A DNA stretch of 64,000 bases from Vulcanimicrobiota bacterium (GCA_019240755.1 JAFAXS010000133.1:201-64200), one strand, 5' to 3'. Shown: positions 9,962 to 62,626, numbered from the stretch's first letter. Translations and numbers: made by a program. The notes: generated from the sequence alone by a model not told the origin.

Positions 9962-16468
<6,507 letters not shown>

Positions 16469-27454: not shown

Positions 27455-27871
27455 CTAACCGACGAGCGCTCTTCGCTTACCGCACTCGGATCGGACGAAG
27501 TCCACTATATCTTGCAGCGGCGCGCCGGGAGTGAAGATCGCGCGCACGCCGAGGTCGCGCAGCCGCTGCGCGTCGTCGGGCGGGATCGTTCCGCCGCCGA
27601 AAAAAACGATGTCGCCGGCGCCCTGCGCCTGTAGCTGCTCGACCACTAGGGGGAAGAGCGTCATATGGGCGCCCGATAGGATCGACAAGCCTATTCCGTC
27701 GGCATCTTCCTGAACGGCGGTCTGCACGATCTGCTCGGGCGTTTGAAAGAGTCCGGTATAAATGACTTCCATGCCCGCGTCCCGCAATGCGCGCGCGATG
27801 ACCTTGGCCCCTCGATCGTGGCCGTCGAGGCCCGCCTTAGCGATGACTATCCGAAGAGGTCGCTCGTTCAT
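27455..27871 (-). CDS. Methylmalonyl-CoA mutase, B12-binding small subunit
   Basis: IVIAKAGLDGHDRGAKV (DxHxxG cobalamin-binding motif). 138 aa. Confidence 0.9.
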   Translation of the reverse strand: MNERPLRIVIAKAGLDGHDRGAKVIARALRDAGMEVIYTGLFQTPEQIVQTAVQEDADGIGLSILSGAHMTLFPLVVEQLQAQGAGDIVFFGGGTIPPDDAQRLRDLGVRAIFTPGAPLQDIVDFVRSECGKRRALVG

Positions 27872-27998
27872 TCTCTTTCTCGTTCTTATGCCGGCTCAGC
27901 GCAAGCGCTTCCTCGAGCTTACGCTTCACCTTCGCCAGCGTTCGCCGGATCCGGTAGATCTCGATATCGGTCCGGCGGCGCCAGCGGTCACGGGCCAT
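27837..27998 (-). CDS. Possible small basic protein (53 aa) between the two MCM subunit genes
   Basis: ATG 27998 overlaps the TGA of the large subunit (TGATG). MARDRWRRRTDIEIYRIRRTLAKVKRKLEEALAL.. Third codon positions are mostly G/C. The 3' end overlaps the small-subunit start by 35 nt. Confidence 0.3.
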   Translation of the reverse strand: MARDRWRRRTDIEIYRIRRTLAKVKRKLEEALALSRHKNEKENERATSSDSHR

Positions 27999-29758
27999 CA
28001 CACCACCGCGGTTTCGGTGTAACGTCCATAGACCTTGGCCATCGCTTCGACGATTTCGCCTTCCGTGCAATACGCGTTGACGCTATCGATCAAATGCGGC
28101 ATGAGGTTGTCCTTCGGATCGCGGCAGGCGGCCTGCAGGCGGTCCAGCGACGAGGCGACGCTCGCGCCGTCTCGCCCCTGCCGAACCGCTTGCACCGCGC
28201 GCGCCTGGCCGCGCTCGGTCTCTTCGGTGATCTTCAGTAGCTCGATCTCCGCCGCTTCTTCGTCCTTCGCAAAGGCATTGACGCCGACGACGATCCGTTC
28301 TTTCGCCTCGATCGAGCGCTGGTAGCGGTAGCTCGCCTCCGCGATCTCGCGCTGGAAAAAGCCCGCTTCGATCGCCTCGATCACGCCGCCGTACTCGGCG
28401 ATCTGTGCGAAGTAGCTCTCGGCCTGGCGCTCCATCTCTGCCGTGAGCGCCTCGACGTAATACGATCCGCCCAGCGGATCCACGACGTTCGTAACGTTGG
28501 TCTCGTACGCGAGAACCTGCTGCGTACGTAATGCGATCTCCACGGACTTCTCGGTAGGCAACGCCAGCACTTCATCCATGGAGTTCGTGTGCAGCGACTG
28601 CGTTCCGCCGAGCACTGCCGCCATCGCTTCGAATGCGACGCGCACGATGTTGTTCTCCGGTTGTTGCGCCGTCGCGCTACAACCGGCGGTCTGCGTGTGG
28701 AAACGCAACTGCCACGAGCGGGGATTACGGGCCCCGTACTTCTCGCGCATGTGGCGCGCGTAGATTCGCCGCGCAGCGCGGAACTTTGCGATCTCTTCGA
28801 AGAAATCGATGTGCGAGTTGAAAAAGAACGACAGGCGCGGAGCGAAGCTGTCCACGTCCATGCCGGCTGCCATGCACGCCTCCACGTAGGCAAAACCGTC
28901 GGCGAGCGTAAAGGCTAGCTCTTGCGCCGCGGTCGAGCCGGCTTCACGAATATGGTAGCCCGAGATCGAAATCGTATTCCACTTCGGCATCTCGCGCGTG
29001 CAGAAGTCGATCATGTCCACGATGATGCGCATGTGGGGCCGCGGGGGAAAGATCCACTCTTTCTGCGCGATGTACTCTTTGAGGATGTCGGCCTGAATCG
29101 TGCCGCCGAGCTTGGCCCGCGGGATGCCTTTCTTCTCCGCCGCCGCCACGTACTGCGCCAACGCGATGCATGCCGGCCCGTTGATCGTCATGGACGTCGT
29201 AATGTCCGCCATGTCGATCCCATCGAAGAGCAACTCCATGTCCGCCAGCGAATCGATCGCGACGCCGCACTTGCCGACCTCGCCCCGAGCCTGCGCCGCG
29301 TCCGAGTCGTATCCCATCAGCGTCGGCATGTCGAACGCAACGGAGAGTCCGTGCTGTCCCTGCGCAAGCAAAAAGTGATAGCGCGCGTTCGTCTGCGCGG
29401 CGGTGCCGAAACCGGCGAACTGGCGCATCGTCCACAGGCGGTCGCGGTATCCGTTCGCATGGATCCCGCGCGTGTACGGATACGCGCCCGGCCATGCCAG
29501 GTCTCGCGCCGGGTCGAGATCGGCGACGTCGGATGGATCGTACGCAACCTTGAGCGGGACGTCGGAAATCGTGCGGTCGACGGCACCGGAACCGGGGCCT
29601 CGTCGCCGCCGCCCGCGCGCCGAACGCTCTTCCCAATGCCGGCGCTGCTCTTCGAAGTCCGGCGTCGGCTGCGCTCCTAGACCGCTGGTGCGGTCAATTA
29701 TCTGGGGCCTGTCCTGAGCTTGTCGAAGAGCCTGTCCTGAGCTTGCCGAAGGAGTCAT
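27998..29758 (-). CDS. Methylmalonyl-CoA mutase, catalytic large subunit
   Basis: ..YPYTRGIH..LWTMRQFAGFG.. and full-length barrel-domain similarity. The only canonical start is ATG 29758, which puts the 23-nt tandem repeat inside the first about 20 codons. Confidence 0.9.
   Translation of the reverse strand: MTPSASSGQALRQAQDRPQIIDRTSGLGAQPTPDFEEQRRHWEERSARGRRRRGPGSGAVDRTISDVPLKVAYDPSDVADLDPARDLAWPGAYPYTRGIHANGYRDRLWTMRQFAGFGTAAQTNARYHFLLAQGQHGLSVAFDMPTLMGYDSDAAQARGEVGKCGVAIDSLADMELLFDGIDMADITTSMTINGPACIALAQYVAAAEKKGIPRAKLGGTIQADILKEYIAQKEWIFPPRPHMRIIVDMIDFCTREMPKWNTISISGYHIREAGSTAAQELAFTLADGFAYVEACMAAGMDVDSFAPRLSFFFNSHIDFFEEIAKFRAARRIYARHMREKYGARNPRSWQLRFHTQTAGCSATAQQPENNIVRVAFEAMAAVLGGTQSLHTNSMDEVLALPTEKSVEIALRTQQVLAYETNVTNVVDPLGGSYYVEALTAEMERQAESYFAQIAEYGGVIEAIEAGFFQREIAEASYRYQRSIEAKERIVVGVNAFAKDEEAAEIELLKITEETERGQARAVQAVRQGRDGASVASSLDRLQAACRDPKDNLMPHLIDSVNAYCTEGEIVEAMAKVYGRYTETAVV
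29708..29753. repeat. Tandem 2 x 23-nt direct repeat
   Basis: CCTGTCCTGAGCTTGTCGAAGAG (29708-29730) followed by CCTGTCCTGAGCTTGCCGAAGGA (29731-29753). A third copy lies at 61213-61235 on the other strand. Confidence 0.85.
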
Positions 29759-29795
29759 AGGGGCCGAGCCATTCGACGCAAACGGCAAATTTTCC

Positions 29796-30719
29796 CTAAA
29801 ACTTGGGCAGGCTCGCGAGTATGCGCTCTGCGGCTTCGTACGGATCAACCCCGTCGCGAGCTCCGTCGCGAATAGCACGATTGAGCCGTTGTTCCAGCCG
29901 CCCCAGCGCCAACTGGCGCACTTGATGCGTGAACGCATCCCGCCGGCGCATCTCCATTTCGCCCGTCTCGTTGAGGTATGCGACGTGACGTTCGACCGCG
30001 CTCCATAGCTCGTCGATTCCGGTGCCCGCGAGCGCCTGCGTGACGACCAGCTCCGGAACCCAACCGTCCCACTGCAACATCTCCATGGTCGAGCGGATCT
30101 CGCGTCGCAGTTGGTCGGCCATCGGGTGATCGGCTTTGTTCACAACGAACACGTCGGCGATTTCCATGATGCCGGCCTTGAGCACTTGAATCGAGTCGCC
30201 GCTGCCGGGCTGGAGGGCGACGAGCACCGTGTGGGCGAGCTCCGCAATCGCGACCTCGCTCTGCCCAACGCCGACCGTTTCGATCAATACGACGTCGAAA
30301 CCAAACGCGTCCATCAGTAGCACCGCATCGGCCGTCGCGCCCGCAAGGCCACCGAGATGGCCGCGGCTCGCCATCGAGCGTATGAAGACGCACTCGTCCG
30401 TGAAATGCTCCGCCAAGCGAATTCGGTCGCCGAGCAAAGCGCCGTGCGAGAACGGCGAGCTCGGATCCACGGAAACGACGCCGACCCGCTTTCCCAACGA
30501 GCGCGCCTTCCGCACCAGTCCGGAAGCGAGCGTTGATTTGCCCACGCCGGGCGGACCGGTAAGTCCGAGCGTCATCGCGCGGCCGGTCTTTGCATAGAGC
30601 GCGCGGATCAGGTCGCCGCCGCGACCCGACTCGGACCACGAGATCGCACGCGCCAACGCCCGCGGCTGTCCTGCTTCGAAGTCGCGTAGAAGTCCACCGT
30701 ATCCGGCCGGGCTGCTCAA
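29796..30719 (-). CDS. meaB: MCM-associated G-protein chaperone MeaB
   Basis: ..RALARAISWSE.., P-loop GPPGVGKST, VVNKAD. Start trimmed to TTG 30719. Confidence 0.9.
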   Translation of the reverse strand: MSSPAGYGGLLRDFEAGQPRALARAISWSESGRGGDLIRALYAKTGRAMTLGLTGPPGVGKSTLASGLVRKARSLGKRVGVVSVDPSSPFSHGALLGDRIRLAEHFTDECVFIRSMASRGHLGGLAGATADAVLLMDAFGFDVVLIETVGVGQSEVAIAELAHTVLVALQPGSGDSIQVLKAGIMEIADVFVVNKADHPMADQLRREIRSTMEMLQWDGWVPELVVTQALAGTGIDELWSAVERHVAYLNETGEMEMRRRDAFTHQVRQLALGRLEQRLNRAIRDGARDGVDPYEAAERILASLPKF

Positions 30720-30778
30720 AGCTGGCTTGTTGCGGCTCCCGCAAGGCCGAACCTCTCGTAGCAGAAAACCTGCGCGGA

Positions 30779-33700
30779 ATGGATCAAGGGTACTATCGCT
30801 ATCCGACGATCGCCCAGGATCGTTTGGTCTTCGTCTGCGAGGACGATCTCTGGAGCGTGCCTTCGGCCGGCGGCGATGCGGTTCGGCTGACGGTGAGTTT
30901 CGGCGCCTGCTCGTATCCGCGGCTCTCGCCCGACGGCGAATCACTGGCCTTCTTTTCGAACGACGACGGCAATCCGGAGCTCTACGTGATGCCGGCGCAA
31001 GGCGGTGAACCGCGCCGTTTGACGTTCCTGGGCGCGACGCTTGCGTGGACCGCCGGCTGGAGTGCGGATGGCAATGACATCTATTTTCTCGCGAATCCGG
31101 CCACGTGGTACGAGGGCGAAACCCGCGCCTTCTCTATCGCCAAGGAGGGCGGCACGCCGCGAGAACTCGACCTCGGACACGCCCGCTCGCTATCGTTCGG
31201 AACGCGCAACAGGATGGCGATCGGGCGCAACGCTGCTGATCCCGCGCGGTGGAAGCGATATCGCGGCGGCACGGCCGGCGAGGTTTGGATCGATGCTCGC
31301 GGAGCGGGACGGTTCGCGCGGCTGGCGTTGCCGAACGGCAATCCCTGCTGGCCGATGTGGATCGGCGAGCGAATCTTCTTTCTAGCCGACCACGAAGGCA
31401 TCGGCAACATCTATTCCGTCGCGCTGGACGGCAGCGACGTGCGCCGGCACTCGCACGAATCGGAATATTATGCGCGCTTCCCGAGTACCGACGGCGCACG
31501 GATCGTGTACGGCGCCGGCGCACAGATCCGCTGTTACGATGTCGCTTCCGATAGCGTGCGCAACGTCGAGATCGCGACGAAATCCGCCACTCCGCAGACC
31601 GTTCGGCGCTTCGAGGATGCGGCGGAGTCGTTGGATCAGTTCGTGCCGCACCCCGACGGCACCCAACTCGCGCTCGACGCACGCGGGCAGCAGTTCACGA
31701 TGCCCCTGTTCGAAGGCGCGGTGACGCGCCACGGCACGGGAAGCGTCGCGCGAATTCGGCTCACTCAATGGTTCCACGATGGAAAGCACCTCGCGTTCGT
31801 CACCGATCAAAGCGGCTACGAACAGATCGCGATCTGCCCATCCGAGGGCCCCGGCGACGTGAAGCTCGTCACCAAAGGCGACATCGGCCGCGTCACCGAC
31901 CTCGTCTGCTCGCCGAACGGCAGCGTGATTCTTTTTGCCAATCATCGGCACGAGCTGTGCGCCGTGGACGCCGACGACGGCAAAGTCCGAATCCTCGACC
32001 GATCCGACGCGCACCGGATAGAAGACCTCGCGTTCTCGCCCGACGGCCGGTACGTCGCATACGTCTGGTACCCCGCGTACGGCACTTCAATCATTCGAAT
32101 TGCAAAGGTTCGCTCCGGAAAGATCTACGATGTCACCTCGCCCGTACGCGTGGACGAATCACCCGCCTGGGATCCGGAAGGGAACTATCTGTATTTCGTC
32201 TCGACTCGCGACTTCAATCCGGTGTACGATGCGCTGCAGTTCGACCTGAGTTTTCCGCAGGCGAGCCGACCGTTCGTCGTCACACTGCGGGCCGACGTCC
32301 CGTCGCCCTTCGTTCCCAAGCCCAAACCGATTCACCAGGATCACGAGCGCTCGCGCGAGCAGCCGAAGGAGGACAAGAAACCGGTACGGATCGAGATCGA
32401 GTTCGAAGGGATCGCCGGCCGCGTCCTTGGCTTTCCCCTCGACGAAGGCGACTACCGCGACATCGTGGCGGCGCGCGAGCGCGTGCTGTTCACGCGCTTT
32501 CCGGTCAAGGGCATCAAGCCGGCGCGGCGCGAGGATCTCGAGGACGATGGGCACGGCACGCTGTTGGCATACGACTTCGAGCAGCAGCGGCTGGCCACCA
32601 TTGCCAACGAGTGCGACGACATTCGGCTCGGCCGGGATGGCCGAACGTTGATTTACCGTTCGTTGAATCGGCTGCGCGCGATCGACGCCGTCGCCGAATT
32701 GCCCGAGGAGGGCGACGAACAAAAACCGCCGGTCGAAACCGGCAGGCGCAGCGGCTGGATCGATCTCGAACGTGCGAGCGTTGAGATCGTTCCGCGCGAC
32801 GAGTGGGCGCAAATGTATCGTGAAGCGTGGCGCATGCAATCCGAAAATTTCTGGGTTGCCGACATGAGCGACGTCGACTGGGACCGGGTCTTTGACCGCT
32901 ACGCTGCGCTGTTGCCCCGGCTGCGAACGCGCGGAGAGCTCTCCGATCTCATCTGGGAGATGCAAGGCGAACTCGGGACCTCTCACGCGTACGAATCGGG
33001 CGGCGACTATCGTGAGCCGCGGCAGTACCAGCTCGGATTCCTGGGCGCCGATCTACGGTGGGACGATGGGTGCCAGGGCTATCGCATCGACCGAATCTAT
33101 CGCGGCGATTCTTGGAATCGCGACGTCGACTCGCCGCTCGCCGAGCCCGGCCAGAACGTTGCGGAGGGCGAGTGCATCGTCGCGATCGGCGGAAAACGCC
33201 TTTCGTGCGACGTTCCGCCGGAGCGGCTGTTGGTAAACGCATCGGAGCGCATGGTCTCGCTGACGCTGCGCGACAAGAAGCGGCACGAGCGAACCGTTCT
33301 GGTGAAACCTCTCGCGAGCGAGGCGGCCCTGCGCTATCGCGCCTGGGTCGATGCCAACCGGCGCCTGGTTCACGAACGCACTCGCGAAAACGTCGGCTAC
33401 CTTCACATTCCCGACATGGGGCCATGGGGCTTTTCGGAGTTCCATCGCGGCTACTTGAGCGAGTTCGATCGTAAAGGATTGATCGTGGACGTCCGCTACA
33501 ATCGCGGCGGCCACGTGTCGCCGCTACTGCTGGAGAAACTCGCGCGAAAGCGCGTCGGCTACGACGTGCCTCGGTATGGCGCGCCCGTTCCCTATCCGCC
33601 CGAATCGGTCGGCGGCCCCATCGTCGCGCTGACCAATCAATTCGCGGGCTCGGACGGAGACATTTTCAGTCACTGCTTTAAGCTCTATAAACTCGGGCCT

Positions 33701-61212: not shown

Positions 61213-61235
61213 CCCTTCGACAAGCTCAGGGCAGG
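61213..61235. repeat. Third copy of the 23-nt motif seen at 29708-29753
   Basis: CCCTTCGACAAGCTCAGGGCAGG is the reverse complement of CCTGCCCTGAGCTTGTCGAAGGG, matching the 29708 unit at 21 of 23 positions. It ends 12 nt before the permease ATG. Confidence 0.75.
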
Positions 61236-61246
61236 CTAAGCTGCGG

Positions 61247-62626
61247 ATGACGCACCGCATTACGCAAGCGCGGCTTCTTCGGCGTCTCGGCGTGCGGGAT
61301 GCCGCCCTGATCGTGATGGGCGGCATCGTCGGGTCGGGCATCTTCATGAACCCGTCGGTCGTTGCGCGGTTCGTTCACAGCGGATCGTTGGTGATGCTCG
61401 TGTGGGCCATCGGCGGTTTGGTCGTGCTCCTGGGCGGTGGAGTTTTCGCCGAGCTCGCCGCGCGACGGCCGCACGACGGTGGAGTCTACGCCTACATCAA
61501 GGAGGCCTTCCACCCATCGTTGGCCTTCATGTACGGCTGGACGTTGTTGCTCGTCTCACAGAGCGGCGGCGCGGCGGCGGCGGCGGTCACGTTCGCAAAG
61601 TACTTTGCGCCCCTTACCGGGTTGCAGGTCAAGAGCATGTTCGTCGCCGCGCCCGTCATCATTTTGTTTACCGCGATCAACGCGCTGGGCGTTCGGACGG
61701 GGGCGACGACCCAGAACCTCTTCATGATCCTCAAAATTCTCGCGATCGGCGGGTTCATCGCCGTTGGCCTGATTGCTCCGCACGCCACGCCGGCCGCGGC
61801 TCCGCCCAACGTATTGGCCGGCGGCGCATTTGCCGCTATCGGCCTGGCCATGGTTCCCGTCCTGTTCGCTTACAGCGGCTGGCAGACGTCGAGCTTTATG
61901 ACGGCGGAGTTGAAAGAACCGCAGGTGACGCTGCCGCGAGGCATGATCGCCGGCGTCGTCGCGGTCGTCGTCCTGTACCTAGCCGTCAACGCCGTCTGCC
62001 TGCGCGCGCTCGGGGTCGATGCGCTCGCCGCGACGAGCACGCCGGCCTCGGCGATCGCGCGGCTCGCGTTCGGGCCCGTCGGACTGCAGATAATGGCAGC
62101 GGTGATCGCACTCTCGACCTTGGGTTTTTTGAGCAATCAAATACTGACGTCGCCGCGCGTCTATTTTCAGATGGCCGCAGACGGCACGTTCTTCAAGCAG
62201 CTGGCATGGGTAAACCCGAAGACGCACGCGCCGGTGATCGCAATCGTCGTGCAAGGCCTGATCGCGCTCCTGATCTCGTTCCTGCCGTACGAGCGGATTT
62301 TGAACTATGTGACGTGCATCGACTATATTTTCTTCGGATTGGCCGCAATCGCGCTGATCGTCTTTCGCAATCGCGACGCTCGCGACCCGGCCGCTCCTCG
62401 GCCGACCATCCGAATGCCGGGGCATCCCGTGACCACATTACTCTTCCTCGTTGTGGCGTGGGGCGTCGTCGGCGACGTCATGATCACGACGCCGGAAACG
62501 ATGTTCGGCCTCGTCATCCTTATTTCGGGACTGCCGGTGTACTGGATGTTTACGCGAGGGCGTCGGCAATCGCCGGCAGCGCTCGTGCCGCAGGCATCCG
62601 TAGAACGCAGCGAGCTGCGCCGCTGA
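61247..62626 (+). CDS. APC-superfamily amino-acid permease
   Basis: ..ALIVMGGIVGSGIFMNPS.. with about 12 TM helices. Start trimmed to ATG 61247. Confidence 0.85.
   Translation: MTHRITQARLLRRLGVRDAALIVMGGIVGSGIFMNPSVVARFVHSGSLVMLVWAIGGLVVLLGGGVFAELAARRPHDGGVYAYIKEAFHPSLAFMYGWTLLLVSQSGGAAAAAVTFAKYFAPLTGLQVKSMFVAAPVIILFTAINALGVRTGATTQNLFMILKILAIGGFIAVGLIAPHATPAAAPPNVLAGGAFAAIGLAMVPVLFAYSGWQTSSFMTAELKEPQVTLPRGMIAGVVAVVVLYLAVNAVCLRALGVDALAATSTPASAIARLAFGPVGLQIMAAVIALSTLGFLSNQILTSPRVYFQMAADGTFFKQLAWVNPKTHAPVIAIVVQGLIALLISFLPYERILNYVTCIDYIFFGLAAIALIVFRNRDARDPAAPRPTIRMPGHPVTTLLFLVVAWGVVGDVMITTPETMFGLVILISGLPVYWMFTRGRRQSPAALVPQASVERSELRR

Follow-up and report, generated by a model that had tools for sequence, protein, structure and literature searches.

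In-frame copies of a dispersed 24-nucleotide unit at the start of an acyl-CoA mutase gene and their probable origin from a GIY-YIG-linked hairpin repeat family

Introduction

Why should a gene for a metabolic enzyme open with a tandem repeat? This question is raised by a stretch of 64,000 nucleotides (nt) from a Vulcanimicrobiota bacterium (GCA_019240755.1 JAFAXS010000133.1:201-64200), here referred to as the window, in which the large subunit gene of an acyl-CoA mutase carries two 23-nt units head to tail just inside its start codon. A first-pass annotation of the window had considered this repeat to be a protein-binding operator, a half REP-like dispersed element, or an insertion that created a new N-terminal extension. 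In this study, we conclude, with a probability of roughly 0.75, that the repeat consists of two head-to-tail copies of a dispersed unit, that this unit derives from a hairpin family linked to a GIY-YIG nuclease gene, and that the copies were inserted in frame between codons 2 and 3 of the mutase gene, where we take them to be tolerated, selfish DNA with no role in regulating the mutase.

A tandem repeat just inside the only canonical start codon

The tandem repeat is real and non-random. Tandem Repeats Finder returned it as the top-scoring tandem repeat of the 64-kb window (29707-29751, period 23, 2.0 copies, 95% matches, score 83), and direct reading showed two 23-nt units matching at 20 of 23 positions, with GTCAT adjoining on the plus strand. 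Allowing up to three mismatches, the 21-mer of the repeat has four copies in the window and none in 100 shuffles. The two units lack the outer GTCAT/ATGAC arms of the hairpin family described below; their possible pairing is limited to CCT/AGG (3 to 4 bp), and they are not hairpins themselves.

The placement of the repeat just inside ATG 29758 was described correctly in the first-pass annotation, as was the status of this codon as the only canonical start of the mutase: no other in-frame ATG or GTG occurs until about residue 110. The frame also contains one TTG, 11 codons 5' of this ATG (29791-29789), which lacks conservation; at that point the relative G010 has an in-frame stop. The minus-strand frame from ATG 29758 reads MTPSASSGQALRQAQDRPQIIDRTSGLGAQPTPDFEE. 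Its codons 3 to 17 are made up of both units and, because the period is 23, these are translated in different frames, as PSASSGQA and then LRQAQDR. With the repeat translated, the predicted N-terminal peptide is MTPSASSGQALR.... Recognizable mutase sequence begins downstream of the repeat, with homology to a solved structure from residue 32 (TPDFEE).

Filled and empty sites in related genomes

Mutase orthologues were compared in 18 further genomes of the genus (19 including the present one) and in 12 genomes outside it, from other genera of the order and class. In 8 of the 19 genus genomes the site is empty, and the gene starts with ..GCGTCGAAAAGCTCGGCCCCT ATG GCC AAG ATG ATC GAG.. (MAKMIE); all outgroup genomes have an (M/V)-A-K start. 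The short start is therefore ancestral. The other 11 genus genomes carry extra DNA at one and the same codon 2/3 junction, and its type, orientation and copy number vary. Two units are present in the source genome, a single 24-nt unit (MALRQAQDRPKM..) in G012, one decayed unit in G015, two to three decayed units in G009, an ATGAC-tailed variant in G016 and G013 (MPFDKLRMT.. and MSFDNLKMT..), a decayed copy in G004, a reverse-orientation copy in G005, two copies in G018, and another insert, net +27 nt and without recognizable element copy, in G003 and G006. Forward inserts fall into CAGG-tailed and ATGAC-tailed units, in addition to which there are the reverse copy and the decayed ones. In the gene tree, filled and empty alleles form well-supported sister pairs (G012/G002, G016/G011 and G018/G014). 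Comparison of G012 with G002 revealed a clean 24-nt gain of CCTTCGACAGGCTCAAGACAGGCC in ATGGC^CAAGATG, with a positional ambiguity of at most 2 nt.

An insertion that created a new N-terminal extension is thus what the relatives point to: their mutase starts lack the peptide or differ at the same point, where some carry other element-derived peptides, which is the opposite of one shared peptide without any repeat structure.

The inserts preserve the reading frame. Net sizes of 15, 21, 24, 24, 24, 27, 27, 33, 48 and 60 nt make 10 of the 11 divisible by three; the insert of the source genome adds a net 48 nt, in frame and without a stop codon, at a site that is empty in eight orthologues. The exception is G018, with a net +46 nt that is out of frame. 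A second frame break was observed downstream in the same G018 mutase gene (locus L023, G018:C3:2602339-2606574); the two breaks may be long-read indel errors or mark a pseudogene.

ATA now stands where the ancestral second ATG was, both in the source genome and in G015. Since the frame is kept and the downstream ATG is lost, translation should start at ATG 29758 and run through the repeat, which, judged from these alleles, is very probably translated. Alternatively, the repeat could be an untranslated leader, with the protein starting at the ATA that replaced the ancestral second ATG or at the neighboring ATT, and with AGGA of unit 2 as Shine-Dalgarno sequence. The stretch AGGACAGG does lie about 8 to 16 nt 5' of ATA 29701 and ATT 29698, and the ancestral protein could have begun at that position (MAKM). 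A leader, however, would not need the upstream ATG to be in frame, as it is in all 10 well-assembled insert alleles (15 to 60 nt, all divisible by three). Moreover, ATA and ATT are rare as starts, and G015, in which ATG likewise changed to ATA, has a decayed unit without AGGA. We therefore regard an untranslated leader as very unlikely.

A similarly low probability is assigned to a regulatory role, in which the repeat would act as an operator for a DNA-binding protein or as a structured element in the 5' mRNA through which large-subunit translation is tuned. Such a role would fit the position of the repeat, exactly at the translation start and 3' of a leader conserved in the genus, and the occurrence of other unit copies at gene starts (the permease start at 61247 and a tetrapyrrole methylase gene [TP_methylase] in the genome G084). 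Nevertheless, a site that is empty in 8 of 19 genomes and differs in type, orientation and copy number in the other 11 is not conserved at the orthologous position, and this also speaks against the operator proposed in the first-pass annotation. Predicted start-codon accessibility showed no systematic difference between filled and empty alleles, unit copies also occur within unrelated genes, and an Rfam scan of the repeat region at a permissive threshold gave no match beyond a chance malK-III hit at E=6. Resemblances of the repeat to tRNA-like structures, CsrA sites, hammerhead ribozymes and k-turns were dropped by eye, as the defining positions do not fit.

Distribution of the 24-nt unit

Both mutase units are copies of a dispersed unit of 23 to 24 nt, CCTTCGRCAAGCTCAGGRCAGGCY. 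Its exact 20-mer core was found in at least 120 genomes from more than 20 phyla in a scan with one genome per species. Among the matches listed are Acidobacteriota, Chloroflexota, Pseudomonadota, Bacteroidota, Planctomycetota, Verrucomicrobiota, candidate phyla radiation (CPR) lineages, Chlamydiota, Actinomycetota and others, cultured isolates included. Within the phylum of the source genome, 41 of 301 genomes have the core, all from a single family, and the controls gave 0; by nucleotide comparison, the source genome matches an Eremiobacterota metagenome-assembled genome best. The unit thus belongs to a dispersed family, as one of the three initial proposals had it, and the widespread element that had been suspected from peptides (LSLSK, FDKLRAG, STSSGQA and LRQAQ) does exist. 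Literature searches, whether for the DNA motif or for the peptides as artefacts, yielded nothing relevant. Flanking sequences widen the unit consensus to CCC-core-CTC, and tandem unit arrays with periods of 22 to 24 nt occur in several phyla.

The 24-nt unit corresponds to eight codons and is open in all three sense frames. All 10 of 10 gene-associated copies are in sense orientation. In G084, each of the seven unit copies examined is within a gene or at a gene edge, again in sense orientation: three inside genes, in frame, for an acyl-CoA dehydrogenase, a PD-(D/E)XK protein and a Cache-domain protein, one close to the N terminus of aconitase, one immediately after the TP_methylase start, and the remaining two at gene-gene junctions. 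Two further copies in the window itself, one of them in ligA, are given in Table 1.

These data also bear on whether the extension is adaptive, i.e., whether the element-encoded peptide is a selected N-terminal tail that serves, for example, subunit contact or stability. In known mutases the tail region contacts the partner subunit, and the reading frame is preserved across the insert alleles, the G018 assembly excepted. On the other hand, the peptides are wholly different between species, being read from other frames and orientations, many species have none, and the same 8-residue peptides occur in unrelated proteins. An adaptive tail is consequently considered very unlikely.

The unit as a derivative of a hairpin repeat family

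The genus harbors a repeat family of the form (C)GTC(AT)CCTTCGAC-N2-3-GCTCAGGATGAC, with GTCATCCTTCGAC-N2-3-GCTCAGGATGAC as the core form. Many copies are hairpins with the arms GTCATCCT/AGGATGAC and a loop of 10 to 11 nt, and compensatory stem changes from T-A to C-G distinguish subfamilies (CCT/AGG to CCC/GGG and GTCAT/ATGAC to GTCAC/GTGAC). The 2.6-Mb source genome contains four copies of the exact core TTCGRCAAGCTCAGGRCAGG and 24 copies of the 12-mer GCTCAGGATGAC, versus 0 for the reversed control. The motif TTCGACN2-3GCTCAGG occurs in all 19 genus genomes, with 1 to 142 copies per genome (controls, 0 to 3), and with 0 to 1 copies in 12 genomes of sister genera. Family copies are mostly intergenic; the gene map used here, based on GC content at third codon positions, was crude and served as rough context only.

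The unit is a stem-less derivative of this family. It often sits inside hairpins of the family, and the same 24-nt boundaries were found in three comparisons of filled and empty sites, namely at the G012/G002 mutase start, in GIY-YIG cassettes of a Cloacimonadota metagenome-assembled genome, and in the relative G130. In the Cloacimonadota genome, the upstream hairpin is CTTCGACAG^GCTCAG in one of two cassettes and bears the unit in the other. In G130, canonical hairpins (TTCGAC^AAGCTC or GAGC^CTGTCGA) carry 10 to 11 of the 13 unit copies in their loops, and taking out the 24 nt restores the hairpin. A flanking stem of at least 6 bp surrounds 10% of unit copies versus 2% in permuted flanks, an enrichment that concerns a minority of the copies; the unambiguous examples are units lodged in loops of the family's own hairpins. 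The initial statement that the motif has no internal palindrome and is no hairpin-type element therefore holds for the unit itself but not for its source, a true hairpin family within which the unit often lies.

Two side observations were made on the hairpins. At G003 loci L189-L207, arrays of three to four half copies (GTCATCCTGAGC plus 7 to 8 nt, or GCTGTCGAAGG) stand before or after full hairpins and look as if copying had stuttered at one arm. At one orthologous hairpin (L213 in G003, L220 in G006), one species has a 2-nt loop spacer and the other an additional 17-nt GC mini-hairpin in the loop; the hairpin loop appears to be a general insertion point.

A GIY-YIG nuclease gene linked to the repeats

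The enzyme gene to which the repeat family is linked is a GIY-YIG gene, neither RAYT nor a reverse transcriptase. A single-domain GIY-YIG gene (G000:C141:1963-2316(-), 118 amino acids; Pfam GIY-YIG E=1.9e-17, residues 4-76) is bracketed by inverted hairpin copies in the source genome, and the same holds for 19 of 19 close homologues in relatives of the genus. Close homologues are restricted to the genus, and distant GIY-YIG genes have no flanking repeats. The downstream element copy supplies the last codons of the gene, with the TGA stop inside the AGGATGAC arm; in most relatives, too, the stop lies within the element. The cassette (G000:C141:1940-2370) is trailed by extra partial copies (GCTCAGGATGAC), likewise in most relatives.

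A Y1/RAYT transposase gene (PF01797) was found in none of 21 genus genomes, while six control genomes scored. Reverse transcriptase genes (RVT_1) were detected in just 3 of the 21 and not in the source genome, and copying of the element by reverse transcriptase was dropped as unsupported. Literature searches linking GIY-YIG to REP or RAYT found nothing.

An ordinary REP or REPIN moved by a RAYT (Y1) transposase would account for some of these features, as would a duplication by slippage at this site alone, outside any dispersed family. The elements are short, dispersed, palindrome-derived and mostly intergenic, a single-copy enzyme gene lies between inverted copies, and stutter arrays of partial copies are common. 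Against this stand the lack of a Y1_Tnp gene in the 21 genomes and the absence of the GTAG tag. In addition, the unit is identical across phyla and also present at other loci of the source genome, and therefore did not originate locally. We assign next to no probability to either variant.

Turnover at orthologous sites

Turnover of the repeats was followed in G003 and G006, whose mutase genes are about 4% apart. Their orthologous repeat sites include a clean 34-nt gain and also show stutter arrays of partial copies. Inside one gene, native GCTCAGGGCGGC has become GTCCTTCGACAG-GCTCAGGATGAC by a 12-nt in-frame addition that completes a half-site. The mutase start of G013 is comparable in that native AAG ATG A(T)C acts as the 3' arm and TCCTTCGATAACCTG was added 5' of the native bases. 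The ancestral mutase start ..CTATGGCCAAGATGATCGAG.. (GCC AAG ATG ATC) itself resembles the 3' arm of the element (AAG..ATGAC), and this resemblance to a half-site may explain why the junction is an insertion hotspot. A further gain, at G003 locus L209 compared with G006 locus L215, placed a hairpin between the stop codon of a gene and a convergent tRNA gene, where it abuts the 3' CCA end of the tRNA.

We propose that the nuclease would nick single-stranded DNA at hairpins or at half-sites that look like them, and that repair, anchored by a few matching bases, would then use another copy of the element as its template. The start-codon junction would serve as a hotspot through mimicry of the 3' arm, and the second mutase unit may have arisen by local stutter or a second hit. 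After insertion, the ancestral second ATG mutated to ATA, and translation would proceed from ATG 29758 through both units. The outcome would be a 16-residue extension, presumably neutral, on an already variable N-terminal tail outside the catalytic domain.

Several observations weigh against our interpretation. The three forward CAGG-tailed alleles share one junction and could stem from one insertion followed by precise loss or interspecies recombination, which would mean fewer independent events. As the mutase units have no hairpin arms, a hairpin-dependent nuclease may not act directly on them, and with a period of 23 instead of 24 the duplication is not a simple second insertion. Four of the 19 genus genomes (two of them incomplete) have repeats but no close GIY-YIG homologue. 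The best solved relatives of the nuclease are the UPF0213 proteins 1zg2 and 1ywl (E=6e-10), and its membership in the Ssn clade (cd10448) is only putative. Finally, the published degenerate motif of SRM, the repeat type of Ssn nucleases discussed below, matches neither a hairpin of this family nor the mutase units, and its 15 matches in the genome are unrelated.

Comparison with known systems

Ssn proteins are site-specific single-stranded DNA nucleases associated with NTS/SRM hairpin repeats (Chenal et al. 2025, Nat Commun 16:2388, PMC11893778). As in that system, a single-domain GIY-YIG gene of about 95 amino acids (118 here, within the Ssn range of about 90 to 120) lies between inverted hairpin repeats, the repeat exists in tens to hundreds of dispersed copies, repeat and gene co-occur by lineage, and the hairpin has a 5' end of the CGTCAT type. 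The likeness is one of gene and repeat architecture, and cleavage by the nuclease described here is putative. Unlike SRM, this family has a loop of 10 to 11 nt with conserved TCGAC..GCTC, and a stem-less 24-nt derivative, its loop insertion and in-frame genic insertion are absent from the text of Chenal et al. (PMC11893778), in which 'intragenic' gives no matches.

REP/REPIN elements and their RAYT transposases (Bertels & Rainey 2011, PMC3116915; PMC3337134) resemble the present family in being short palindromic repeats between genes, with inverted copies on either side of a single-copy enzyme gene. They differ in that the enzyme here is GIY-YIG, with no Y1 transposase found in the genus, and in that REPs are lineage-specific, whereas this core is near-identical across phyla. 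CGTC-tagged REPs, including dRS3 of Neisseria and RPE-4/-6 of Rickettsia (Di Nocera et al. 2013, PMC3733652), are likewise hairpin repeats without a dedicated transposase, of which some copies are intragenic, often in replication or repair genes, as is the ligA copy here. Their stems of 8 to 9 bp, loops of 4 to 5 nt and CCA tails contrast with stems of 5 to 8 bp and loops of 10 to 11 nt in this family.

A parallel for selfish repeats that lie in frame in genes, contain no stop and are absent from orthologues is offered by the Rickettsia palindromic elements. Work of Ogata et al. from the year 2000 is reported to have found these within protein-coding genes, keeping the frame and translated into an additional peptide that is tolerated. 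They are about 100 to 150 bp long with long palindromic arms and belong to one genus, unlike the unit of 23 to 24 nt in more than 20 phyla. The closest known counterpart is the Ssn/SRM system together with such in-frame Rickettsia elements.

For annotation, the unit explains puzzling peptides (FDKLRAG, PSTSSGQA, LRQAQDR and SLSKG) in predicted proteins and spurious open reading frames of soil and sediment bacteria. The findings would extend the Ssn/SRM type of nuclease-repeat partnership to Eremiobacterota-like genomes, with a repeat type missed by the published motif. They also indicate that such repeats are not solely intergenic, as the 24-nt derivative lies in frame in essential and metabolic genes and repeatedly at one start-codon junction. 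Provided that the nuclease is the driver, the filled and the empty sites of sister species would offer a tractable system for studying the copying of a 24-nt repeat. A bolder and rather doubtful possibility is that CCTTCGRCAAGCTCAGGRCAGGCY is the smallest mobile DNA so far observed in bacteria, a trans-mobilized, strand-specific element compatible with coding. Ssn-type GIY-YIG nick-and-copy into hairpin loops and half-sites, including start-codon regions, would have written the same 8-residue insertions across more than 20 phyla.

Features of the mutase locus

On the minus strand, the gene order is meaB, a gap of 37 nt, the mutase large subunit and then the B12-binding small subunit (Table 1).

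Table 1. Genes and repeat copies in the window
Feature	Position	Strand	Description
Unit copy in ligA (NAD-dependent DNA ligase, open reading frame 11484-13499)	13001..13021	-	In frame, ..IPLRLR[SSTGSRQG]..; 7-amino-acid insertion versus solved LigA
B12-binding small subunit	27455..27871	-	Pfam PF02310
Acyl-CoA mutase large subunit	27998..29758	-	Pfam MM_CoA_mutase, residues 62-578; best solved match HcmA 4r3u
ATA codon in place of the ancestral second ATG (M of MAKM-IE)	29699..29701	-	Start potential lost here and in G015
Repeat unit 2	29708..29730	-	Plus strand CCTGTCCTGAGCTTGTCGAAGAG; gene sense CTCTTCGACAAGCTCAGGACAGG; another frame, giving L-R-Q-A-Q-D-R
Repeat unit 1	29731..29753	-	Plus strand CCTGTCCTGAGCTTGCCGAAGGA; gene sense TCCTTCGGCAAGCTCAGGACAGG; codons 3-10, P-S-A-S-S-G-Q-A
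Mutase start codon ATG	29756..29758	-	Homologous start in relatives conserved as ..CCCCT ATG GCC..
meaB-mutase gap, 37 nt	29759..29795	-	Genus-conserved leader ..GCGTCGAAWRGCTCGGCCCCT; center similar to element core at 12/16 positions
MeaB-type GTPase gene, upstream of mutase	29796..30944	-	Pfam PF03308
Unit plus half copy AAGCTGCGGATGAC	61215..61252	+	Divergent intergenic gap; ATG 61247-61249 within half copy

The ATG at 61247-61249 is likely the start of an amino acid permease gene; the Pfam domain of the predicted protein begins at residue 16.

The first-pass annotation had named the mutase a methylmalonyl-CoA mutase (MCM). It is the large subunit of an acyl-CoA mutase, but not necessarily MCM: the best match among solved structures is the 2-hydroxyisobutyryl-CoA mutase large subunit HcmA (4r3u, E=5e-171), ahead of methylmalonyl-CoA mutases, and two specificity positions hold F and Q (RQ-F-AGF and YIA-Q-KEW). 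We take this pair to be a signature of the isobutyryl-CoA mutase type, as opposed to the Tyr/Arg of MCM. With this signature and HcmA as the best match, the name MCM is possibly too specific. A second mutase paralogue with 56% identity is located on contig C108.

The leader between meaB and the mutase gene (window 29759-29800 and loci L006-L022 of relatives) is conserved throughout the genus, not beyond, as GGGGAGAA ... GCGTCGAAAAGCTCGGCCCCT ATG. In most predicted folds its GGGG can pair with CCCC just 5' of the ATG, and the leader may represent an ancient copy of the element or else a hairpin that acts in translation.

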